IMG/VR virus record: IMGVR_UViG_3300001567_000010
Location: 1-51,803 of that record
Source of the DNA: a virus
Reading direction: 5' to 3' (one strand)
Length of the DNA: 51,803 bases
A program made the translations under genes and the position numbers. Positions 32,744 to 51,803 of the stretch are shown here, piece after piece. Under the pieces are notes generated by a model. It did no database searches, was not told where the DNA came from, and saw only the letters and a list, made by a program, of their open reading frames with translations. The first letter of the stretch is position 1, and every line of letters starts with the position of its first letter.

Positions 32744-34060
32744 TTACAGGCTCCTGTATTTCTCAATAATTTCCTTAATCCGCTCGCTCTGCTTCTTCGT
32801 TGGGCCGAATCCCATCCATTTGCAGGTGTGATCATTCTTCAGGATACAATACGTCATCCGCTTCCAGGAGGGGATATCGATCGTCGATTTGACGTCATCG
32901 GTATCGTCCGGGATCTCTGCGAACCGGACATCTGTGCGGCCATGCTTGGACCGGACCGACGGACCTACCTTCTCGATAGGATAACGGCACGCCTCCAGTT
33001 CGGCGATCGCCTCGTCTGACACCACGCCCCCCTTCTCTTTCCAGAACTTGATCGACGTCTCAAACTTTTCGAGATAGTGGTTCCGGGTCTCCTGCGGGAG
33101 CGTCGAGAGCAAGAACTTGCAGTAACTCTCCCAGGTGTGTCCCTTGGGGAGTTTGATCTCCCGGTATCCCAGGGCCTTTGTGTCCCCGTAGATCGCCGCG
33201 AAGTTGGCGCCCTGCACCCTGCCGACGACCTTGACCCATACCTCCGGGTCGATCACGCGGTAGAGATTCAGGGTCGCCCTCCCCCATATGTTGTAGGGGC
33301 TCGCTACCCGCATCTGCGAGAGAGTAAGCCCGGCCTTGTAGTAGAGGTCGTAGAGGCGGTTGTAGTCATAGCCTCGCCGGCCGTTCGCGACCCATACATC
33401 CTCGACCTCCCAATCATAGATCGGGTGGCCGACGTAGTAGTTCTCACCGGCCTGCCGGGTCCAGTGCTGCCCACGGTAGAGGGTCTTGCGGTCGTTCGTG
33501 ATCGCTGCATACCGGTTCAGGGACTCGTTCGCCCGGATTCCCAGGAGGACGATCGACCGGCCGGGGTGCGTCCGGGCATACCACTTGCCGAACTCTTCGT
33601 AGAGCGCCTCGTCGGTCATGGCGAGCCGGTAGAAGTCAGGGACGTTGTCATGCTCCAAGCTGATCACATACGGCTGCTCCGGCAGCGGCCGGACCCAGAT
33701 ATCCCGCTCTGCAGGATTCCACGGCACCCAGGAGAGTTGGTGCATCGAGACCGAGCAGTTCACGGTCATCGGGACGCAGAACCAGTATGGCTCGATATCG
33801 TCGATATTAGCCTCGTACATCCGGGTCACGTACTCGGTCGTCATGGAGTACTGCGCCTCGTAGTCCTCGTGGAAGACCGCGATCCGCTGCCCGCACCCGT
33901 GCCGGCGCTTGTATTCCAGCACGGCATTGAGGAGCAGCCCGCTGTCCTTCCCGCCGGAGAACGACACACAGATGTTATCGAAGTCCGAGAAGACCAGATC
34001 AAGCCGTTTCTCCAGGGCTTCATCCACCCCGCACGCGAGGAAGATCTTTTTTCCGCTCAT
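32744..34060 (-). CDS. ibrA: IbrA-like PAPS-reductase/PP-loop protein (DUF3440-like C-terminus)
   Basis: VSFSGGKDSG, GIRANESLNRY, HPIYDW, YNRLYDLYYKAG, MRVASP, GANF, CILKNDHTC. Confidence 0.88.
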   Translation of the reverse strand: MSGKKIFLACGVDEALEKRLDLVFSDFDNICVSFSGGKDSGLLLNAVLEYKRRHGCGQRIAVFHEDYEAQYSMTTEYVTRMYEANIDDIEPYWFCVPMTVNCSVSMHQLSWVPWNPAERDIWVRPLPEQPYVISLEHDNVPDFYRLAMTDEALYEEFGKWYARTHPGRSIVLLGIRANESLNRYAAITNDRKTLYRGQHWTRQAGENYYVGHPIYDWEVEDVWVANGRRGYDYNRLYDLYYKAGLTLSQMRVASPYNIWGRATLNLYRVIDPEVWVKVVGRVQGANFAAIYGDTKALGYREIKLPKGHTWESYCKFLLSTLPQETRNHYLEKFETSIKFWKEKGGVVSDEAIAELEACRYPIEKVGPSVRSKHGRTDVRFAEIPDDTDDVKSTIDIPSWKRMTYCILKNDHTCKWMGFGPTKKQSERIKEIIEKYRSL

Positions 34061-35496
34061 AATACCTTCACCAGATCCTTCAGTTTTGCCTTATCATCCT
34101 TCACCGCGTCCACCTCGCGCCGGAACGAGGCCACGACGTTCTCTTTTCGGGAGAGTGCCTCCCAGATCTTCTCATCGATACCTGAGGAGAGGATATCGGT
34201 ATACGTCACCTCGTGTTCCTGCCCCATCCGGTGGCACCGGTCCTCGGCCTGCAGGCGCTCGGAGTACTTGAATGAGTTCGAGTAGAACACGACGTGCCGT
34301 GCCTCGTTCAGGGTCAGCCCGTGGCCGCCGCAGGACTGCGTCGAGACGAAGAACCGCGCCGGACCTCGGAACTTCTCGACCTCCTGCTGCCGGGCCGGGA
34401 CCGGGGTGTCGCCAGTGAATACCGCGACGGAGTCGGGACCGTACTCCTCCCGCAGCGCCGCCACGATCCGGGCGATGTCGTAACGATACTTCGCCCACAC
34501 GATAACCTTCTCGTCGTCCGGGATCTCGTGGACCACGTCAAGCAGGGCCTCCAGCCGCCCCTCGCGGAACGTCAGGAACTGATACTCGTCGTCAGGGCTC
34601 AGCTCCCCATCCCGGCACAGCCGACGGTTCCAAAATCCCGATACGATCTGCTGCAGCACGCCGTAGAGCCGGAAGATCGTGTAGGGTTTGAAGTCGTCGT
34701 AGTCGATCATGAGGAGGATCTCCTCCTTCGCCGCCTCGTATGCGTCCCGCTGCTCCCCGGTCAGGCTGCAGTACCGGGTTTGGTACTTCTTGCCCGGCAG
34801 AGACATGGACTCTTCTTTCGTCACCTGGTAGACGTAGGGGGCAATCTTCGCCGCGAGTTGCTCGGTGTCATGTGTGGCGACGATGAGGCCGGGGTACCGC
34901 TCGGAGTACTCGAGGTGGTTCCGGGCGAACGTGTACCACGACCGGTAGCCGAGGATCCTTGGCGACAGGAACTTCATCTGCGCGAAGAGATCCTCGACCC
35001 CCTGGCTGATCGGGGTCCCCGTCAGCACGAACCGGTAACGGGCTTTATCGGCGAGCAAGGTTGCCCGGGCGGTCCGGATCGATTTATGGCCTTTGATGTA
35101 CGAGCTCTCATCCAGGATCACGAACGTCCGGTCGGTGATGATCGAGTGGAGAGCAAACGTGACTCGGTCCGAGGAGGAGAGCGACTCCAGACCGACGACG
35201 ATCCACCGGGCGGCCCGCGGCACGGTCTCGGCCGTGGTCCGGTCGTCGAACACGTAGACGTCCCGACAATCCGTGTGCTTGTAAATCTCCAGGCGCACGG
35301 TCTCCTTGAGCGAGACCGGGCAGAACCAGACGACCCGATCGATCTTGCGCGCCCGCTGCCGGACGATCTCGATGGCCGTCCTGGTCTTGCCGGTCCCCAT
35401 CTCCATGAATAACCCGCCGACGCGGGTCGGCTTGAGCTTCCGGACCGCCGCCAGCTGCCAGGGCATAAGGTCAGTCGTCGTCGCGAAGGTCTGCAT
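34057..35496 (-). CDS. SNF2-family helicase/ATPase
   Basis: MEMGTGKT, ILDES, LTGTP, GHGLTL, QAEDRCHRMGQ. Confidence 0.93.
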   Translation of the reverse strand: MQTFATTTDLMPWQLAAVRKLKPTRVGGLFMEMGTGKTRTAIEIVRQRARKIDRVVWFCPVSLKETVRLEIYKHTDCRDVYVFDDRTTAETVPRAARWIVVGLESLSSSDRVTFALHSIITDRTFVILDESSYIKGHKSIRTARATLLADKARYRFVLTGTPISQGVEDLFAQMKFLSPRILGYRSWYTFARNHLEYSERYPGLIVATHDTEQLAAKIAPYVYQVTKEESMSLPGKKYQTRYCSLTGEQRDAYEAAKEEILLMIDYDDFKPYTIFRLYGVLQQIVSGFWNRRLCRDGELSPDDEYQFLTFREGRLEALLDVVHEIPDDEKVIVWAKYRYDIARIVAALREEYGPDSVAVFTGDTPVPARQQEVEKFRGPARFFVSTQSCGGHGLTLNEARHVVFYSNSFKYSERLQAEDRCHRMGQEHEVTYTDILSSGIDEKIWEALSRKENVVASFRREVDAVKDDKAKLKDLVKVL

Positions 35497-36610
35497 CGAT
35501 CTCTCCGGGTTTCGTCTGCTCTTTCGGCTCGCCCTTGATCGGCTCCGGCCCCCCCACGGGTTTGACGACGAGGGCCGCCTCCCTTGTCGCCCGTGCCGCC
35601 TCGATGAGCCCCAGAGCGCCGGGCGAGAGCTGGAACCCGAACTCGTCCACGAGGTCGAGGATCGCCTCATACTGCGCCGCCGGCACGACCACGTTCGGCT
35701 TCGACCACCGGCTGCCGGCGATCTTGCGAGCAGCCGCGTAGATCGCCTCGTTGTCCCGCTCCCACTGGATGCTGAACCAGCCGGCATAGTCTCCGCCGGT
35801 GCGTTGCGTCACCCACCGAACGTACTCAGGTTCGTAGGAGCCCGAGACGGCCATCTCCCGGGCGACCTCATCGAAGACCTGGATGACAAACCCTGCCCGG
35901 AGGAGCAGGTTCCCGATCTCCCCTGCCCGGTCCGCAGGCGTGCCGGCAAACTTACCGATCTGCCGCGCCCATAGAGCGCCGTTCCACCGGAACCCGCGCC
36001 CCTTGACGATCTCCCGCAGGGTATCGTTCCGCTCCGGGTAGATCACCTCGACCGTGCTCTCCCGGATCCGGATCTGCACAGGGATCTCAGAGACCGGTGT
36101 CTCCGGCCGGACCGTCGCCTCGGCGAGAGCCTCCTCTGCGGAAACGGCGCCAGCAGCTTCCCGGAGGTCGAGGAGCCCCTTGTATCGCTTCGCGACGAGG
36201 GTCATGATCTCCCGGTCAGAGGGGTTCCGGCCGTTCTCGATCCACCAGACCGCCGAGGGCTCACGCTGGATTGACTCGACGGCCTGCTGTGCGAGGACCG
36301 TATCGACATCCTCGCGGACGGTCCGCCGCTGCAGGACGCCGTCGAGCACTTCGAGATACTTCTTCCGGATCGTGAGCGCCCAGGCGACCTGCTTATCGGT
36401 GCCGACGAGGGCCGGGAGTTCCTGCTCCGCCGCCTCCGCTGCGGCCGCGACGCGCTCGGCCTCCCGCTTCGCCTCCAGTTGCGCCTTGTAGCAGTCAGGG
36501 CAGAGTTCCTGCTCTTTGTTCTTGAGGATCCATTCCCGAGTCCGGGTCGGCCCCGTCAGGCGGACGGTGCCCGTATGCCCGCAGGCATACGTGACCGAGT
36601 ATTTCGCCAT
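35471..36610 (-). CDS. Conserved hypothetical protein: Zn-binding N-terminus (CGH...CPDC) plus two HARP-like repeats
   Basis: VIYPERNDTLREIVKGRGFRWNGALW and IQWERDNEAIYAAARKIAGSRWSKPNVVVP. Confidence 0.7.
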   Translation of the reverse strand: MAKYSVTYACGHTGTVRLTGPTRTREWILKNKEQELCPDCYKAQLEAKREAERVAAAAEAAEQELPALVGTDKQVAWALTIRKKYLEVLDGVLQRRTVREDVDTVLAQQAVESIQREPSAVWWIENGRNPSDREIMTLVAKRYKGLLDLREAAGAVSAEEALAEATVRPETPVSEIPVQIRIRESTVEVIYPERNDTLREIVKGRGFRWNGALWARQIGKFAGTPADRAGEIGNLLLRAGFVIQVFDEVAREMAVSGSYEPEYVRWVTQRTGGDYAGWFSIQWERDNEAIYAAARKIAGSRWSKPNVVVPAAQYEAILDLVDEFGFQLSPGALGLIEAARATREAALVVKPVGGPEPIKGEPKEQTKPGEIDADLRDDD

Positions 36611-37064: not shown

Positions 37065-37405
37065 CTCCGAGACCCCCGAGGGGTCCGCGGTGCCGGCCTT
37101 ACCGCCCCCGTCTTTTTAAGGTCCTCGATCAAGTCGTTGACCACCGGGCCCACAGCCCGATGGACAGGCCAGAATCGTATCTTGCCATCTGTGTCCTGGC
37201 GAGTGAGACAGTATCCCCCGCGGATCAGGATCTGGATCGTGTAGTCGCCGACCTCCACCTCGGGGTCGGTGACGGCGTCACCTTCGCTGGATCCCGTTGC
37301 ATGGTACCCGCAAATCTCCAGGTATTTAACGAGTCCCGGGATTTTTTCGTTCGCCGCATCGGCGCCCCGTATGAGTGCGTCATATACATCAAGTTCCATT
37401 CTCAC
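37061..37405 (-). CDS. Hypothetical protein
   Basis: First gene after the repeated promoter 37399-37444. Confidence 0.6.
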   Translation of the reverse strand: MRMELDVYDALIRGADAANEKIPGLVKYLEICGYHATGSSEGDAVTDPEVEVGDYTIQILIRGGYCLTRQDTDGKIRFWPVHRAVGPVVNDLIEDLKKTGAVRPAPRTPRGSRR

Positions 37406-37444
37406 ACCTCTATACCTATATTAGACCCACTAGTATTTATAATT
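37399..37444 (-). promoter_or_regulatory. Early promoter/RBS block, copy 1
   Basis: 46 bp identical to 37975-38020; TTATAAATA box and GAGGTGTGAG SD on the minus strand. Confidence 0.85.
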
Positions 37445-37974: not shown

Positions 37975-38020
37975 TTCTCACACCTCTATACCTATATTAG
38001 ACCCACTAGTATTTATAATT
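37975..38020 (-). promoter_or_regulatory. Early promoter/RBS block, copy 2
   Basis: Identical to 37399-37444. Confidence 0.85.
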
Positions 38021-38486: not shown

Positions 38487-38490
38487 CGGT

Positions 38491-38523
38491 AATTATATAT
38501 ACTAGTGGGTCTAATATGGGTAT
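38491..38523 (+). promoter_or_regulatory. Early promoter, copy 3 (opposite orientation)
   Basis: AATTATATATACTAGTGGGTCTAATATGGGTAT, 2 mismatches in 33 vs the reverse complement of copies 1/2. Confidence 0.8.
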
Positions 38524-38565
38524 TGTAAGAGGGAGCAAGAATGCAGTTAAAGAGAGAAGGTGAAC

Positions 38566-39003
38566 ATGATGAAAGTCAACAACCCGATTGATGCAATGCC
38601 TGAGGACGTCGCCGAGGGCCTCCGCCGCCACGCGGAGGAGCTCCTTGACGATACCAGACCTCTCAACCCCGCAGCGGAGCCAGCGAGGTACCCGACTGAA
38701 CGGTACTGCAAATGGAAGGGCGAAATGTTTCTGTGGAGTGAAGACGCCCTCAAACAGATCCGGCGGATCGATCCGTTTGTCCGCCCCCTCCCGAAAACCG
38801 CATCCCTCGCGGAGCGGCGGGCGTGGCATGCCGACCTCGTTACGTGCGTCGGCGCGCTGAAGCGGGACGAACTGAACGACATCGTGGTGCAGATGGTGAC
38901 GCTGATGCTGTCCGTCCCGAAACTCGATCTCCCTGAGATGCGGGCGCTGGAGAACTGGGACGGAGTCTCCCCGATCAGGATTGTCGAGGGGCAGGAGGGG
39001 TGA
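38566..39003 (+). CDS. Hypothetical protein
   Basis: SD GAAGGTGA; first gene after promoter copy 3. Confidence 0.6.
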   Translation: MMKVNNPIDAMPEDVAEGLRRHAEELLDDTRPLNPAAEPARYPTERYCKWKGEMFLWSEDALKQIRRIDPFVRPLPKTASLAERRAWHADLVTCVGALKRDELNDIVVQMVTLMLSVPKLDLPEMRALENWDGVSPIRIVEGQEG

Positions 39004-39371
39004 TCACGATGGATGCAGACCCCGACTATCACATCCCCCCCGCCGCCCGGGAGGAGTTGGAGAAGATCATCCAGGCCGACCTCGAACACGCGACGGTCTC
39101 ATCCGCGAGCGTCCACGTTGACGACGTCGGCCGGATCATCATAGAAGAACTCGTGCTCCGGCTCCCGGACGGCCGCATGGTATCGGCGTCACCGTTCAGC
39201 GCCTCGCCCGACTACGCAGAGGATATGCGGCTGGATGTCTACGACGACCACCTCGCGGGCGGGCACGGCTGGCGCGAGGCGACGATCGATGATGACTACG
39301 CCGAGGAACTCGCGGACGCGACGCATGTCTGGCACCCGGAGCCGGACACGGTGGAGGAGGCGAGGCTGTGA
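39000..39371 (+). CDS. Acidic hypothetical protein
   Basis: Coupled ORF, strongly Asp/Glu-rich. Confidence 0.6.
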   Translation: MITMDADPDYHIPPAAREELEKIIQADLEHATVSSASVHVDDVGRIIIEELVLRLPDGRMVSASPFSASPDYAEDMRLDVYDDHLAGGHGWREATIDDDYAEELADATHVWHPEPDTVEEARL

Positions 39372-39718
39372 GGGACCCCCTCGCCGGCGGGCATGCAGGG
39401 GAGAGCCCCTATCGGTACGACCCCGCCGCCCGGCTCTCGCTGACTGCGGGATATTCCCGGGATCCCTTGCACGACTCCCGATACCCCTGGTGGGTCCCTC
39501 CCTGCAACCGGTGCGCCTGGAGCCTGGAGATCGTCCGTGAGCGCACCCGGGAGATTGAGCGGACCCGGCAGTTGTTCGTGACGATCGATGCCGCGATCGC
39601 CTGGGGAGAGGCCCTGCGAGGGGCCCAGGCGCTCTACCGGGCGCAGCGCCGGCAGGCTCTCACCGCGATCATAGGGGGGCTGCTCGTCGTGGTCCTGGTG
39701 GTCGCGGCGGCGATGTGA
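39368..39718 (+). CDS. Hypothetical protein with C-terminal TM anchor
   Basis: ALTAIIGGLLVVVLVVAAAM. Confidence 0.55.
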   Translation: MRDPLAGGHAGESPYRYDPAARLSLTAGYSRDPLHDSRYPWWVPPCNRCAWSLEIVRERTREIERTRQLFVTIDAAIAWGEALRGAQALYRAQRRQALTAIIGGLLVVVLVVAAAM

Positions 39719-39744
39719 GGTATGAGTAATGGTAGAGGACTGCA

Positions 39745-40608
39745 ATGACAAGCGGTAGCACACCCCTCACCCATTTCTCCTGCTTCAGCGGCATCGGCGG
39801 GATTGACCTAGCCGCCGAGTGGGCGGGGTTTCAAACGCTCGGGCAGGTAGAACTTAAAGAATACCCGTATGCAGTGCTCCGTCAGCACTGGCCAGACGTA
39901 CTAAAATGGAGAGATATCAAGGATGTCACAAGTGGATCTATCAGGAGAGCCGGTATTGCACAACCCCCGACCGTATTATCCGGGGGTTTCCCATGCCAGC
40001 CGTTCTCTTCTGCCGGCAACCAGAGAGGCACGGTTGATGACCGCTATCTCTGGCCGGAAATGCTTAGAGTCGTGCAGGAATGTAGGCCCGCTTGGATTGT
40101 TGGAGAGAATGTTGATGGGTTCGTCGGAATGGCACTCGACGAATCACTTGCTGGTTTGGAGCGTGCAGGTTACGCCTGCCGGGCGTTCGTATTTCCGGCT
40201 GAAGCAGTTGGAGCCCCGCACGAAAGATATCGGTGCTTTATTGTTGCCCACCGTCTGTGCAGCGGACAAGAGCGGGCACGGGTATCAATACGACAACGGC
40301 GACCGGACAAAGATCCGGCTGACGCTCCCGGGCTATGTGAGGATGATCCCGACAATGCACGCGAATGCACATACTGGGCCTGGAAGGCGGGGTCTAGGAG
40401 GTGTGAACATACAGACCGCGCTGAAAGAATCAACTGGTATGAAGCTGCAACCCGCTTTTGCGGAGTGGATGATGGGGTTTCCAATCGGGTGGACCGAATT
40501 GAGGCGCTAGGGAATGCAGTTATGCCGCAACACATCTCCCCCATCATGAATGCAATTGCAGCGATCGAGGAACAAAATTACAGCCTGAAAGGGCTGGTAG
40601 AAAAATGA
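39745..40608 (+). CDS. C5-cytosine DNA methyltransferase, alpha-like chain (motifs I-VIII and X)
   Basis: FSGIGG, GGFPCQPFS, GENV, PHERYRCFIV, RIEALGNAVMP; no motif IX. Confidence 0.92.
   Translation: MTSGSTPLTHFSCFSGIGGIDLAAEWAGFQTLGQVELKEYPYAVLRQHWPDVLKWRDIKDVTSGSIRRAGIAQPPTVLSGGFPCQPFSSAGNQRGTVDDRYLWPEMLRVVQECRPAWIVGENVDGFVGMALDESLAGLERAGYACRAFVFPAEAVGAPHERYRCFIVAHRLCSGQERARVSIRQRRPDKDPADAPGLCEDDPDNARECTYWAWKAGSRRCEHTDRAERINWYEAATRFCGVDDGVSNRVDRIEALGNAVMPQHISPIMNAIAAIEEQNYSLKGLVEK
40037..40510 (+). CDS. C5-methyltransferase beta-like chain in an overlapping frame (motif IX); alternative start 39923
   Basis: Nested ORF ending LQPAFAEWMMGFPIGWTEL (motif IX-like). Confidence 0.75.
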   Translation: MTAISGRKCLESCRNVGPLGLLERMLMGSSEWHSTNHLLVWSVQVTPAGRSYFRLKQLEPRTKDIGALLLPTVCAADKSGHGYQYDNGDRTKIRLTLPGYVRMIPTMHANAHTGPGRRGLGGVNIQTALKESTGMKLQPAFAEWMMGFPIGWTELRR

Positions 40609-40781
40609 CGGATCACCAGTGGCACCGGGCGAAATGCCCCGCATGTGGGAAATCTCAATTTGATGTGTACGAATCGCATTGGACTGAACACGATTGTGAT
40701 ACGGGCGAACTCATAGAGGGCTATGCACTCAAGGTCGCGTGTCGGGCGTGTAAGTCCATCCTCCAAGCGATTGGCGGTTGA
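40605..40781 (+). CDS. Small Zn-ribbon protein (58 aa)
   Basis: CPACG...CRACK; ATGA coupling. Confidence 0.6.
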   Translation: MTDHQWHRAKCPACGKSQFDVYESHWTEHDCDTGELIEGYALKVACRACKSILQAIGG

Positions 40782-41320: not shown

Positions 41321-42499
41321 ATGGCAATATCGGTCACGGATGCGGAGAAATCTATCAGTAACGCCCTCGCAGATGGGCGGATCACCAACCCCGACGCGGC
41401 GGCGCTCCGGGACTTTTTATCCGACGCTCGCGCCACGAACGGCATATCCCCCAACCGGATCAACCTCTACGCCTCGTCGCTCTGCCGCATGGCCCGGTTC
41501 CTGCCCGGGGGCCTTATCGCAGCGTCGGCGGCAGACCTCTACGCGGGGGTCGCGGATCTCCGGGGGCCGACCGCCTACAAGGGACGCCCCTACAAGCAAA
41601 ACACCCTTCAGAGCACGATCACGATCGTCCGGCTGTTCTATCGGTGGGCCGCCGAGAATGGATACACCGAGATCCCGCAGCCGCGCATCGACCGGCTCAA
41701 GCCGCCGCACCGGGACCGGATGACCAAGACGGCGGGCCAGATGCTCACCCCCGAGGATGTGCAGGCGATCGCCGGGGCGTGCCGCAGGTCATCCGACCGG
41801 GCGATCCTCTGGATGCTCTACGAGGGGGGGTTCCGGGTCGGGGAGCTGATCGAGATGACGTGGGGGCAGGTGACGTTCGACCAGTACGGCGTCGTGGTGA
41901 ACGTCGACGAGAAGACTGACCGGCCTCGATATGTCCGCCTCATCATGGCCGCAAAACCCCTCGCAGCATGGCGGGCGGATTACTACTTCGACCCGACCCC
42001 CGAGACCCCCGTCTTCCTCGACACGAGGTGCCGCCCGATCACCCGCGCCGGGGTTACCCAGATGCTCCGGCGGGCGGCGCGTCGGGCCGAGGTCGAGAAG
42101 CACATCACCGCGCATCTATTCCGGCACTCGCGGATCACGCATCTGATCAAGGAAGGGGTGAATGAGTCGGTGATCAAATTGATGATGTGGGGCAATATTA
42201 ACACCGATATGTTCGCCACCTACGCGCACCTCACCGGCGTCGATATCGACGCGGAGATGCTCCGGACCTACGGGATCGCCCCGGAGCCGAAGCAGCGGCA
42301 CCAAAAACTCGCCCCGATCCAGTGCCCCAAATGCGGACAGGTGTGGCCCGCGGGCTGGCGGGTCTGTGAGTGCGGGGAGATCCTCGACGAGGACTTGAAG
42401 AAGACTGCGCTTGATAAGGAAAAATACGCACAGGAAAGTGGCGATTATCAGAAACTCCTCGCACAGCTCCGGCGGGACCTGCGCATTGAAGATAGATAG
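41321..42499 (+). CDS. int: Tyrosine recombinase/integrase with C-terminal Zn ribbon
   Basis: GGFRVGEL (R), EKTDRPR (K), HLFRHSR (HxxR), TYAHL (Y); CPKC..CEC. Confidence 0.95.
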   Translation: MAISVTDAEKSISNALADGRITNPDAAALRDFLSDARATNGISPNRINLYASSLCRMARFLPGGLIAASAADLYAGVADLRGPTAYKGRPYKQNTLQSTITIVRLFYRWAAENGYTEIPQPRIDRLKPPHRDRMTKTAGQMLTPEDVQAIAGACRRSSDRAILWMLYEGGFRVGELIEMTWGQVTFDQYGVVVNVDEKTDRPRYVRLIMAAKPLAAWRADYYFDPTPETPVFLDTRCRPITRAGVTQMLRRAARRAEVEKHITAHLFRHSRITHLIKEGVNESVIKLMMWGNINTDMFATYAHLTGVDIDAEMLRTYGIAPEPKQRHQKLAPIQCPKCGQVWPAGWRVCECGEILDEDLKKTALDKEKYAQESGDYQKLLAQLRRDLRIEDR

Positions 42500-43929: not shown

Positions 43930-44114
43930 TGGCCGGTCCCTGGCAAATCATGAGTCAGGTCATCAACGACCGTAAGATGTACATCGCCGGCCGGCAGAAG
44001 AACCCCGCAGAGCCCCTGCACGGCGGCAACGTCGAATACTACGGAGGGTATTCCGATAACCGCGAATCGGTCACGGCATTGGTCGAGGACCTCAATGCCG
44101 GGAGGCGGTGCTGA
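43929..44114 (+). CDS. Small hypothetical protein
   Basis: TGATG coupling both sides. Confidence 0.55.
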   Translation: MAGPWQIMSQVINDRKMYIAGRQKNPAEPLHGGNVEYYGGYSDNRESVTALVEDLNAGRRC

Positions 44115-45400
44115 TGGACACAACAACGATCTCGGTATCAGAGGTTGTGTTCCGCGAGGATCTCTACCCTCGTATCGAGCACGACCCTCGCCTCGTGCAG
44201 AAGTACTCCGAGGATCTCGAAGTGCTCCCGCCGATCGAGGTCAACCAGCACCATGAACTGATCGACGGTTGGCACCGTTGGACGGCATACCGGAAGATCG
44301 GCGCTGAAACCATACCCGTAATCATCACGCAGACAAAGAGTGATGTCGAGTTTCTCTCGCTCGCAATCGAGCGGAACGCCAAGCACGGGCAGCAATTAAC
44401 CAACACAGATAAAAGGAAGATGGCGATCCGCCTCTTCAACAGCGGCGCGGGTGTGTCTGATAAGACATACCTCGCAAAGATCCTCTCTGTCTCGCAGAAG
44501 ACGATCGACCGCTACCTCAAAGAGACAGAAGACCGGATCAAGGTAGACCGCGACGCGAAGATTTTCGGCATGTACCTCTCCGGCCACACGCAACAAGAGA
44601 TCGCGGATGCGGTCGGTGTAACTCAGAAGACCGTCGACAACGGGTTGGAATCTTTAGTAAATTTAGACAGGTGTCCGAAATTACTAAAGATCGCCGCGCT
44701 CTTCGAGGATGATTTCAAGGCACCTTTATACAACGTGTGGCGGTTCACCAAGTCCTCAAACAACGTCGCGCACTTCGGGGAGTCCGAACAGACGATCGTC
44801 GAAAACCTCCTCTATCTCTACACCGCCCCGTTCGATCTGGTGGTCGATCCGTTTGCCGGCGGAGGCTCCACAATCGACATCTGCAAGAAACGTCTCCGGC
44901 GGGTCTGGGCGTCTGACAGGAAACCGATACCCGAGCGAGAAAACGACATCCGCAAACACGACATTGTAACGGACGGAATACCGCCGTTAAACAACAGGTG
45001 GTCTGACGTATCATTAACCTACCTCGACCCGCCGTACTGGAAGCAGGCGGAGGGGCAGTATTCGAACGACGCAGAAGACCTGGCAAACCAGAGCATAGAG
45101 GACTTCACACGCAACCTCTCGAACCTCGTCATCGAGGTCGGGAAGCGGCAGTCGAAAGGTGTGATCGCACTCCTCATCCAACCGACGCAGTGGAGATCAC
45201 CGGATAGGAAGTTCACGGATCATGTTTTTGATGTCATCCGTGCCGTGCAGGACTCCGGTGTCAACCTCGAACTCGTGAACCGCGTATCGTGTCCGTACAA
45301 CAGCGAACAGTATAACCCGCAGATGGTGAACGTGGCAAAGGACGAGAAACTCCTCCTCGTGCTCACGCGGGAACTGATCGTCTGGAGGTGCGGGGTATGA
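44114..45400 (+). CDS. ParB-N/HTH fused to amino (N4/N6) DNA methyltransferase
   Basis: LIDGWHR (ParB), TQQEIADAVGV (HTH), VVDPFAGGGST (motif I), LDPPYW (motif IV). Confidence 0.85.
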   Translation: MDTTTISVSEVVFREDLYPRIEHDPRLVQKYSEDLEVLPPIEVNQHHELIDGWHRWTAYRKIGAETIPVIITQTKSDVEFLSLAIERNAKHGQQLTNTDKRKMAIRLFNSGAGVSDKTYLAKILSVSQKTIDRYLKETEDRIKVDRDAKIFGMYLSGHTQQEIADAVGVTQKTVDNGLESLVNLDRCPKLLKIAALFEDDFKAPLYNVWRFTKSSNNVAHFGESEQTIVENLLYLYTAPFDLVVDPFAGGGSTIDICKKRLRRVWASDRKPIPERENDIRKHDIVTDGIPPLNNRWSDVSLTYLDPPYWKQAEGQYSNDAEDLANQSIEDFTRNLSNLVIEVGKRQSKGVIALLIQPTQWRSPDRKFTDHVFDVIRAVQDSGVNLELVNRVSCPYNSEQYNPQMVNVAKDEKLLLVLTRELIVWRCGV

Positions 45401-50032: not shown

Positions 50033-50431
50033 ATGTTCCTGAACTGCGGGCAGGCCACCCCCTCAAAAGATGCGGTCCGCCTGGTGATCTGGGACGGCGC
50101 CATCGAGTACGTGTTCAGCCTGACGATCCCGGACGTCTCTGCCCTGCTCCAGGAGCGAGCGGAGTCGATCCCCGTCGGGCGGCAGTTCGGGCTCCTCGAA
50201 AACAAGGCATACGGCAGGGCGCGGCTCACCAACCCCTGCGCGGATGGGCAGCGGAAAGGGGTTGCGTTCTGGTTCCCCTGCTTCCCGGGCCGGTTGTTTT
50301 CAGTCTCGCGCGTGGGGCTCGCCGGGGTTGCCCGGAGTGTCACCCGGGGCGCGGGGGACCACTGGCTGGATGCCGTGGTCTCGGAGATGATCCCGGACCC
50401 GGGGCCGGTGCGGATGGGGGTGCGGGCGTGA
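50033..50431 (+). CDS. Hypothetical protein
   Basis: SD GGAGGTG; coupled to the next gene. Confidence 0.55.
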   Translation: MFLNCGQATPSKDAVRLVIWDGAIEYVFSLTIPDVSALLQERAESIPVGRQFGLLENKAYGRARLTNPCADGQRKGVAFWFPCFPGRLFSVSRVGLAGVARSVTRGAGDHWLDAVVSEMIPDPGPVRMGVRA

Positions 50432-51150
50432 CTCAAGTCCGCTACCCCCATCGGGCCACGAAGCGCCTTGAGGACCTGGTGCTGCTGAACGGTCCAAAAC
50501 TCCATGACAGGATCTATGACGAGGTCCTCGTTGCCGGGCTGGAGTTCCATCGCGACCAGGCGGAGGAGTATAGCGAGATTATCGCGCTCCTCGGCACCCT
50601 CAGGGAGGTCCACCGAGAGTACAGCGACGAGGCCGGGCCGTTCGGCGATATGTTCGGCGAATACATGGAATGCAACGGCGAGACCTCAGAGCGCAACGGG
50701 CAGTTTTTCACGCCGATCGATGTCGTCGATATGATGGTGCAGATGACGCTGCATAGCACTGATCTTGACCGGCAGCAACCGTGGACCTTCTGCGATCCAG
50801 CGTGCGGTACTGGACGATTCATGCTCCGGACCGCCCACCACTTCGCGAAGGAGAACAAAGGGGCGCTGAACTTCCTGTTCACGAACGTCGATATCGACCG
50901 CAAGGCGTTCACGTATTGCACGATGAACGCGGTCCTGAACGGTATCCCTGGGATCCATATCCACGGAGACACGCTGCGGATGGAGGTCTGGGATGCGTTC
51001 GCGACAGTGCCGATCGGGCAGGTCGCGCCCTGGACACGAGTGCGGCCGGAGACGGCGAAGGCGTGGCTCGTGCAGGCACTCCAGGCCCCGACGCCCACGC
51101 CCACGGTCCGGCAGGAGACCGTGCAGACTTCGCTGGAGGCGGGGGCATGA
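50428..51150 (+). CDS. Short N6-methyltransferase-like SAM-binding protein (HsdM-like N-terminal half, no NPPY/F)
   Basis: GQFFTP, DPACGTGRF, VDID, MNAVL, HGDTL; ends before catalytic motif IV. Confidence 0.8.
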   Translation: MTQVRYPHRATKRLEDLVLLNGPKLHDRIYDEVLVAGLEFHRDQAEEYSEIIALLGTLREVHREYSDEAGPFGDMFGEYMECNGETSERNGQFFTPIDVVDMMVQMTLHSTDLDRQQPWTFCDPACGTGRFMLRTAHHFAKENKGALNFLFTNVDIDRKAFTYCTMNAVLNGIPGIHIHGDTLRMEVWDAFATVPIGQVAPWTRVRPETAKAWLVQALQAPTPTPTVRQETVQTSLEAGA

Positions 51151-51803
51151 GCGAGCAAGTTTGCGAACTCTTCTGTGGAGCCGGGGGTATGGGCCTCGGG
51201 TTCTCGCAGCATTTCAACGTGGTCGAGGCTGTGGACGTCCTGCCGGAGGCGGTCAAGACCTACGGCGCGAACCACCCCGAGACCGACGCCCGTCGGCGGG
51301 ATGTGCGCGACCTCTCCGGCACCCGAGGGGATTTCGACGGTATCACCGGGATCATCGGTGGGCCGCCGTGCCAGGCATGGAGCCGACGAAACATTCGGCA
51401 GACGCCTGACGATCCCCGGGCGACGCTGCTCGACGAATACATGCGGATCGTCGAGGAGGCCCGCCCCCAGTGGTTTGTCCTGGAGAACGTAGTCACGGTG
51501 CCGAAGGCGGCGAAGCAGAGGGTTATTGACCGGGCTAAGGGGCTCGGCTACCATGTGACTTCTGCCTGCCTGAACGCGGCGGACTACGGAGCTGCACAGA
51601 CCCGCCGCCGCTGGATCGCGATCGGGTGCCGAGGGAGAACTATCCTGGAGCCCCGGAAGAGTCGGTCGCGGAGCGTCCGACAGGCGTTCGCAGGGATCCG
51701 GGAAAACTGGGGGATCATGCGCTCGTCGCCGGAGACCCTCGCCCGACTCGCGACCGCCACGACCGACGACTGGGCGGCGATGAACGGAGAGAATCGGAAC
51801 ATG
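51147..51803 (+). CDS. C5-cytosine DNA methyltransferase, N-terminal part (continues at window start to 292)
   Basis: ELFCGAGG, GGPPCQ, LENV, YGAAQTRRRW. Confidence 0.92.
   Translation, partial: MSEQVCELFCGAGGMGLGFSQHFNVVEAVDVLPEAVKTYGANHPETDARRRDVRDLSGTRGDFDGITGIIGGPPCQAWSRRNIRQTPDDPRATLLDEYMRIVEEARPQWFVLENVVTVPKAAKQRVIDRAKGLGYHVTSACLNAADYGAAQTRRRWIAIGCRGRTILEPRKSRSRSVRQAFAGIRENWGIMRSSPETLARLATATTDDWAAMNGENRNM
51737..51803. repeat. Terminal direct repeat, right copy
   Basis: Matches 1-67 with one mismatch. Confidence 0.95.

Follow-up and report, generated by a model that had tools for sequence, protein, structure and literature searches.

A gene at positions 39745–40608 of the IMG/VR virus record IMGVR_UViG_3300001567_000010 carries two overlapping reading frames, and each of them is under purifying selection. 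The record was analysed complete (51,803 bases, hereafter the window). The frame 0 product, alpha, is a chain of the DNA cytosine-5 methyltransferase (C5-MTase) type, and the product of the +1 frame nested inside it is called beta. We consider it very probable that the locus specifies a two-chain C5-MTase from one stretch of DNA, with alpha as the catalytic chain and beta supplying the small domain. This two-frame layout, which is known from one Escherichia coli enzyme, M.EcoHK31I, and which annotation usually overlooks, occurs very commonly in phages; the window gene is a real, well-supported dual-coding gene of this already known layout.

Two reading frames on one stretch of DNA

An original prediction, made from the letters of the window and its open reading frames (ORFs), had described a C5-MTase encoded in two overlapping frames, and both ORFs lie where it placed them and have the content that it gave. 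Alpha carries motif I (FSGIGG, residues 14–19), motif IV (GFPCQPFS, residues 81–88), motif VI (ENV, residues 121–123) and motif VIII (HERYRCF, residues 159–165), followed towards its C-terminus by motif X. The +1 frame is free of stops over 201 codons, with an ATG at 39923 and a stop at 40508–40510, one codon ahead of the alpha GNAV, while the +2 frame is open for just 59 codons. The beta ORF terminates in LQPAFAEWMMGFPIGWTELRR. That the nested frame ends in a motif IX-like sequence was correctly predicted, but this describes only one part of beta, which also encodes a conserved N-domain over alpha motifs IV–VIII and a variable region. The coding sequences of these parts are superimposed: the same bases encode the end of alpha motif VIII (CFIVA) and beta LLLPT, and beta MGFPIGWT is written on bases in common with the alpha pre-motif-X sequence DDGVSNRVDR. 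The alternative start at 40037 named in the prediction corresponds to Met39 of beta.

The nested frame is conserved and under selection

A census was made of 165 loci, comprising 80 from viral contigs, 80 from prokaryotic genomes, four phage loci and the window. Alpha was recognisable in 160 of the 165 loci, and motif X was in frame in 149 of these 160. A nested +1 ORF that lies inside alpha and ends in GFPxxW is found in 148 of the 149 relatives, which come from phages, viral contigs and bacterial genomes, and the open stretch has a median length of 211 codons in the +1 frame versus 47 in the +2 frame. A +1 ORF with matching features is present in Lactobacillus phage Lc-Nu (ORF40), in a contig of a human-gut phage and in the Paenibacillus phages Lily and Bloom, and the inner ORF is annotated in Lily (as “g62 internal gene”) and in Bloom (BLOOM_57).

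Selection on the nested frame was assessed in 40 relatives with less than 70% alpha identity, by shuffling synonymous codons within each gene with the alpha protein and codon usage held fixed. Over alpha residues 63–168 (nucleotides 39931–40248), where the pairwise identity of alpha is 0.642, identity in the +1 frame is 0.447 versus a null of 0.258 +/- 0.002 (z of about 80), and +1 stops occur at 0.07 per sequence versus 4.12 expected. In the overlap of motif IX with the pre-motif-X stretch of alpha, +1 identity is 0.685 versus a null of 0.250, with 0.00 stops versus 0.41 expected. The extra +1 constraint is restricted to the nested span, and the control stretches are in line with the null, both ahead of the beta ATG (identity 0.325 versus 0.313, stops 2.20 versus 2.05 expected) and past the beta stop (identity 0.258 versus 0.232, stops 2.02 versus 0.95 expected). 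For the window alpha gene taken alone, 5000 synonymous shuffles gave a mean of 5.25 stops in the beta span and not one stop-free sequence (0/5000); a +1 open frame of at least 195 codons arose in 0.12% of the shuffles (p of about 0.001 or less). The prediction had staked its reading on conservation of the nested frame, and that frame is kept in nearly all of the relatives under selection at the protein level.

The codon positions at which substitutions fall were counted in 22 phylogenetically independent close pairs. In the parts of the gene that encode alpha only, changes fall at alpha codon position 3 in 69% (N-terminal part) and 53% (C-terminal part) of cases. Between motifs VIII and IX, 48% of changes are at beta position 3 and just 26% at alpha position 3, and in the motif IX overlap 50% are at beta position 3. 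An alpha wobble signature was not seen in the linker region in these pairs. Because the wobble signature follows the beta frame, it is beta, and not alpha, that is the selected frame between motifs VIII and X.

Signals for internal translation are also conserved. A Shine-Dalgarno (SD)-like tetramer stands ahead of the beta ATG in 129 of 142 relatives (consensus AAGGAGAG, then about 5–7 nucleotides, then ATG), and this ATG lies 15 codons upstream of motif IV in 118 of the 142; in the subclade of the window it lies 22 codons upstream. The beta start MSQxxLSG is common to the window and its nearest beta relatives. In M.EcoHK31I, internal Met codons of beta acted as starts and allowed some residual activity (PMC2836561), and by analogy Met39 at 40037 is a possible second internal start of the window beta.

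The alpha chain

Alpha matches Pfam family PF00145 (E 6.2e-34; 118 bits versus a cut-off of 22) over residues 11–170 only, corresponding to profile positions 4–162 of 324. It also matches phrog_363 (E 1.7e-70), and scores 95.2 bits against TIGR00675, under the cut-off of 100.65 for that family. Motifs I, IV, VI, VIII and X are all present and are invariant among 44 relatives, and G256, N257 and A258 of motif X are unchanged in 44 of 44. In an AlphaFold2 (AF2) model, the predicted local distance difference test score (pLDDT) is over 90 in the catalytic core, and the core was matched by Foldseek to the structures of M.HaeIII and M.HhaI (3ubt_A, E 9.6e-13; 2uz4_A, E 2.1e-12) over about 170 columns. 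By its modelled fold, alpha is the large domain of a C5-MTase.

The remainder of the chain looks different. The pLDDT is below 50 at residues 180–190 and 193–253, and the region between motifs VIII and X is predicted to be disordered. The middle stretch from motif VIII to motif X has an alpha identity of 0.159 among the 40 relatives. That the main frame is without motif IX, as had been predicted, is borne out by the end of the PF00145 match at residue 170, and alpha lacks a folded variable region as well. By the Pfam end point, pLDDT, identity and wobble signature alike, alpha does not carry a target-recognition domain or motif IX of its own between motifs VIII and X.

The beta chain

At E<=1e-3 the beta family comprises 4612 cluster representatives, and at the stricter threshold of E<=1e-10 it comprises 1676. 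These are mostly 170–300 amino acids long and aligned from the N-terminus, many of them beginning MSQxxLSG. The consensus of the N part reads ...QLTLFxxDSxASxSxxPGSxEARxMTVTSGRKC...LG.LxRMLLxSSxWxST.C.LTWK...TP.GRLLF.L.PS.PRT, and is followed by one or more “LLPTPxAxD” modules and then by LNPxFVEWLMGFPxGWTDL. The window beta retains the invariant residues S43, G58, W79, L93 and P187, and its two modules are also present in the nearest relatives L005 and L088. Beta matches phrog_1008 (E 3e-21) and phrog_31772 (E 3.6e-5), both of which are labelled DNA methyltransferase; the ESM Atlas clusters nearest to it all bear the name “hypothetical protein” and are mostly viral. The AF2 model of beta has a mean pLDDT of 70, with block means of 77–83 for residues 31–100.

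The virus also encodes a second C5-MTase of the ordinary single-chain kind, which has the motif IX pattern xxLQGFPxxY/W in common with beta. An hhalign comparison pairs EWMMGFPIGW of beta with AAALQGFPPDY of this enzyme, a weak match (E 0.019, 11 columns, low probability).

Some unusual forms were seen in the beta family. Ten beta-like proteins with N-terminal extensions were examined for a fused alpha-beta chain; none of the ten was found to be one, and none has a PF00145 domain. Protein P0078 (254 amino acids) begins as beta and ends as alpha (RVDRLRALGNAVVPQQ); it is probably a frameshifted read, the alternative being a natural two-frame fusion, and was excluded from the alignment used for folding. 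In Acinetobacter phage vB_AbaM_ABMM1 (locus L167, 903–1817), the nested +1 ORF (907–1803, 298 amino acids) starts 4 nucleotides after the methyltransferase start and is nearly as long as the main ORF of 304 amino acids. Its N-terminal part differs (MSWLFSQALVAEY...), but the PTP modules and the LNPNWVEWLMGWPIGWT end are retained.

Proposed mechanism

In the arrangement that we favour, alpha and beta would be translated from one mRNA and then assemble into a single enzyme, translation of beta starting at an internal ATG of its own, at 39923, and possibly at 40037 too. Alpha would bind S-adenosylmethionine and carry out catalysis through the Cys84 nucleophile in motif IV, with a disordered stretch of about 84 residues linking its motifs VIII and X. 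Beta would consist of the conserved N-domain, a variable region of two modules that reads the target, and the C-terminal motif IX, the helix of which would pack on alpha, beta thus providing the small domain that is absent from alpha. The conserved N-domain probably anchors beta to alpha, which is consistent with the weakening of association by N-terminal deletions of beta in M.EcoHK31I (PMC2836561). Its most likely substrate is the viral genome, which it would methylate for self-protection as an orphan enzyme. We infer that the chains assemble, that both would be needed, that beta would read the target and that the enzyme would have this biological role.

The original prediction had proposed that beta supplies motif IX and may also supply target recognition. 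On the sequence evidence this is the most likely assignment of both functions, and it agrees with the wobble signature between motifs VIII and X, which follows beta, and with the predicted disorder of alpha in the same stretch. A broader proposition is that target recognition resides in the nested beta rather than in alpha across the whole EcoHK31I-type family, and that the overlap is an ancient, obligatory double coding; for this we see the case for and against as evenly poised.

Weighing the alternatives

Several points weigh against beta being part of the enzyme in the way proposed. In the search of both frames against profiles that had been suggested with the prediction, alpha matched PF00145, and beta had no NCBIfam match and, even with a threshold as loose as E<=10, 0 Pfam matches for the window or for 53 relatives. 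A PDB sequence search with the 53-sequence beta profile also gave no match, and no fold match was found for the beta model (Foldseek best E 1.1; VIA-align wide best Z 2.9). We infer that beta corresponds to the C5-MTase small domain from a model of moderate quality that lacks such a match, and the likeness of beta to canonical motif IX is at the pattern level only. The target-recognition domain of M.EcoHK31I has been published as part of alpha, not beta (PMC2836561, PMC3404938). In addition, the spacing of 11 nucleotides between the window's SD-like sequence and the beta ATG is longer than ideal. The absence of Pfam, NCBIfam, PDB and fold matches could also suit a real nested gene whose product acts outside the methyltransferase, for example in regulation, as an anti-defence protein or by binding DNA. 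We think this improbable, given that alpha lacks exactly what the C-terminal half of beta resembles, namely a variable region and motif IX, that alpha and beta are co-inherited in all but one of the 149 relatives, that M.EcoHK31I needs both chains (PMC2836561) and that PHROGs labels beta-like proteins as DNA methyltransferase.

Two further explanations would do away with a separate beta chain. A single chain could be made by programmed frameshifting, with a +1 shift after motif VIII into the beta frame and a return before motif X; the spliced motif order would then be the canonical I–VIII / target-recognition domain / IX / X, and the position of the beta stop, a single codon ahead of GNAV, would fit. 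However, two shifts would be required, and the beta N-domain, about 80 residues with invariant S43, G58, W79 and L93, would go untranslated in spite of its strong conservation and of the conserved SD sequence and ATG ahead of it. Furthermore, CFIVA and LLLPT share bases, as do the pre-motif-X stretch and motif IX, so that the parts are not sequential, and M.EcoHK31I gives two separate polypeptides (PMC2836561). Frameshifting is therefore a highly unlikely explanation. Less likely still, to the point of being negligible, is gene decay or an artefact of assembly, in which two compensating indels have thrown the central part of an ordinary methyltransferase out of frame. Such an event could account for the restriction of the Pfam match to the first 170 main-frame residues and for the resemblance of the +1 frame to the missing middle, but it is refuted by the census, in which the two-frame layout recurs in 148 of 149 independent relatives at 40–67% identity. 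Selection on the +1 frame also reaches far upstream of any possible shift point, and as the coding sequences overlap, indels cannot make the motifs sequential. Thus, a nested beta chain acting together with alpha remains our preferred reading.

Features of the locus and genomic context

The coordinates of the two chains, their parts and the associated signals are collected in Table 1.

Table 1. Features of the alpha/beta methyltransferase locus and its surroundings, in window coordinates.
Feature	Position	Strand	Remarks
Putative promoter, TATA-like block	38490–38523	+	Heads the gene string 38560–40781
Shine-Dalgarno-like GAGGA	39735–39739	+	5 nucleotides ahead of the alpha ATG; read from the sequence, putative function
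Alpha coding sequence	39745–40608	+	Frame 0; 287 amino acids, 864 bases; C5-MTase large catalytic domain with motifs I, IV, VI, VIII and X
GGAGAG before beta ATG 39923	39908–39913	+	11-nucleotide spacing
Beta coding sequence	39923–40510	+	+1 frame; 195 amino acids; wholly within alpha
Doubly conserved overlap	39985–40239	+	Alpha motifs IV–VIII (frame 0) and beta N-domain, about residues 22–106 (+1)
GAGAGG, then ATG 40037 (beta Met39) 8 nucleotides on	40023–40039	+	Possible second internal start
Beta variable region	40235–40432	+	Residues 105–170; two “PT..A.D/H” modules; probable target-recognition part
Alpha linker	40252–40503	+	Residues 170–253; frame 0 reading of the beta variable region; probably unstructured
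Beta motif IX-like C-terminus, LQPAFAEWMMGFPIGWT	40445–40495	+	Beta residues 175–191; overlaps alpha pre-motif-X GVDDGVSNRVDR
Alpha motif X, GNAV	40510–40521	+	Residues 256–259; first base, 40510, is the last base of the beta stop
Zinc-ribbon-like ORF, CxxC...CxxC	40605–40781	+	58 amino acids; ATG overlaps the alpha stop (ATGA); probably co-transcribed

The methyltransferase is the fourth gene of a rightward string at 38560–40781. An identical direct repeat of 46 nucleotides occurs at 37399–37444 and 37975–38020, and the TATA-like block that heads the string is an inverted copy of it (33–34 nucleotides, 94% complementary) that holds the TATA-like element TTATATATA. Each of the three copies of the repeat heads a gene string; these strings are divergent, and one of them includes the alpha/beta methyltransferase. 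For the 58-amino-acid ORF downstream, zinc-ribbon matches in Pfam are weak and sub-threshold only, and there is no PHROG match.

Past this string, at 41321–42499, is an integrase gene, the named relatives of which (42–49% identity) are all from Methanomicrobiales (Methanofollis, Methanoculleus, Methanolinea, Methanoregula and Methanocalculus). The named virus that the integrase matches best has been assigned to Methanomicrobiales, and the one that the primase-helicase matches best to Methanosarcinales. Because the integrase relatives and the best virus matches are linked to methanogens, a methanogen host appears likely, and the host probably belongs to Methanomicrobiales; the description of the window as an archaeal virus in the original prediction is in agreement with these matches. 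An alpha homologue was not found in vir524 or vir525, the two methanogen viruses that gave the best matches for the integrase and the primase.

The methyltransferase gene has a GC content of 55%, versus 62% for the genome. In a quick tree, it groups (Shimodaira-Hasegawa-like approximate likelihood ratio test support of 97) with three contigs, none of them with an established true host: a viral one and two small ones that had been binned as Patescibacteria. Its nearest relatives are contigs from uncultured viruses and metagenome-assembled genomes, within a radiation dominated by prophages of Bacillota. In the flanks of the nearest relatives, L005 and L087, only a weak radical-SAM match was seen and nothing that would point to a host. 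These sequence affinities fit acquisition from the gene pool of bacterial viruses. The lower GC and likely foreign origin that had been suggested for this segment are partly supported, by composition and by the Bacillota-dominated radiation, which point to no particular donor or date.

The ends of the record, 1–67 and 51737–51803, are identical save for one mismatch. Because these 67-nucleotide ends match, the genome is circular, circularly permuted or terminally redundant, though the record is classed as linear. The second, single-chain C5-MTase spans this junction (51147–51803, continuing at 68–289), with motifs I, IV (PPCQAWS), VI and VIII at the record end, and motif IX (ISLAEAAALQGFPPDY) and an atypical motif X (ANAMP) at the record start. 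With this gene, the virus has a one-chain C5 enzyme in addition to the proposed two-chain one. Directly upstream of it, the ORF at 50428–51150 is N6-adenine methylase-like by eye, and a protein of 430 amino acids encoded at 44108–45400 has an N6_N4_Mtase domain above the Pfam cut-off, with weak, sub-threshold ParB-N and helix-turn-helix matches. As judged from sequence, there are four DNA methyltransferase genes in this 52-kb virus, including alpha/beta. Elsewhere, on the minus strand at 32744–35787, a PAPS-reductase/DUF3440 (IbrA-like) gene adjoins a gene for an SNF2-family helicase.

Implications for annotation and overlapping genes

The value of this single locus is modest, as its layout was already known from M.EcoHK31I; its wider interest comes from how large the family is, from the annotation gap and from the evidence for a recognition part in beta. 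Gene callers usually log alpha only, and the probable target-reading half of the enzyme therefore goes unrecorded. To predict specificity, and to explain the escape of viruses (here a probable methanogen virus) from host restriction, both chains are required. Among the papers covered by a literature search, none was found to describe the spread of the nested gene. With about 590 bases coding in two frames and both products selected, the locus is a clean natural case that is useful for the study of the evolution of overlapping genes and for their design.

Should the broader proposition for the EcoHK31I-type family hold, a doubly conserved overlap of about 100 codons, spanning alpha motifs IV–VIII and the beta N-domain, would be common to thousands of phage genes, placing this family among the largest and best-conserved overlapping-gene families of prokaryotic viruses. 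The recorded alpha alone would then be a poor basis for predicting specificity. It would also follow that double coding has crossed into archaeal viruses, where internal initiation within an ORF must work too.

Comparison with known systems

C5-MTases of the single-chain type, such as M.HhaI and M.HaeIII, have the large-domain fold and catalytic motifs in common with alpha. Unlike the window gene, these enzymes and the virus's own second C5-MTase have a variable region and motif IX in frame between motifs VIII and X. M.AquI is, like the alpha/beta enzyme proposed here, a C5-MTase of two polypeptides, which is cut in the variable region into parts carrying motifs I–VIII and IX–X (PMC3404938). 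An M.AquI-type split was rejected for the window locus, where motif X (GNAV, residues 256–259) is on alpha together with motifs I–VIII and beta is fully nested.

The closest named phage genes are those of the Paenibacillus phages Lily (LILY_62/63) and Bloom (BLOOM_56/57) and of Lactobacillus phage Lc-Nu (ORF40), in which alpha is homologous to that of the window at 35–43% identity over more than 90% of the length. The nested beta of these Bacillota phages is also homologous to the window beta, with the N-domain, the PTP modules and the GFPxGWT end in common. The window differs from them in its probable methanogen host, and in the number and kind of its variable modules. In the Paenibacillus phage paper, two “DNA-cytosine methyltransferases” are listed without comment.

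M.EcoHK31I, from E. coli HK31, recognises YGGCCR and was described by Lee, Kam and Shaw in 1995; its beta gene lies inside alpha in another frame (PMC2836561, PMC3404938), and its chains of 38 and 23 kDa are both required for activity (PMC2836561). The window locus resembles it in having an alpha that holds motifs I–VIII along with X, plus a nested beta (which carries motif IX in M.EcoHK31I and has a motif IX-like end in the window), and in chain sizes, which are 287 and 195 amino acids here. EcoHK31I-type dual coding, as originally proposed for the window, is therefore upheld by the motif content of alpha, by a beta nested in the other frame with a motif IX-like end and by the closeness of the chain sizes. 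The two differ in that M.EcoHK31I belongs to a restriction-modification system, while the viral gene appears to be an orphan, no restriction-enzyme gene having come up among the neighbouring genes looked at. They differ also in the placing of target recognition, which the literature assigns to alpha of M.EcoHK31I, whereas in the window selection and the disorder prediction point to beta. In its anatomy, the window locus shows every testable feature of M.EcoHK31I, motif IX at the level of sequence pattern, the likeness being one of layout as set against the published descriptions.

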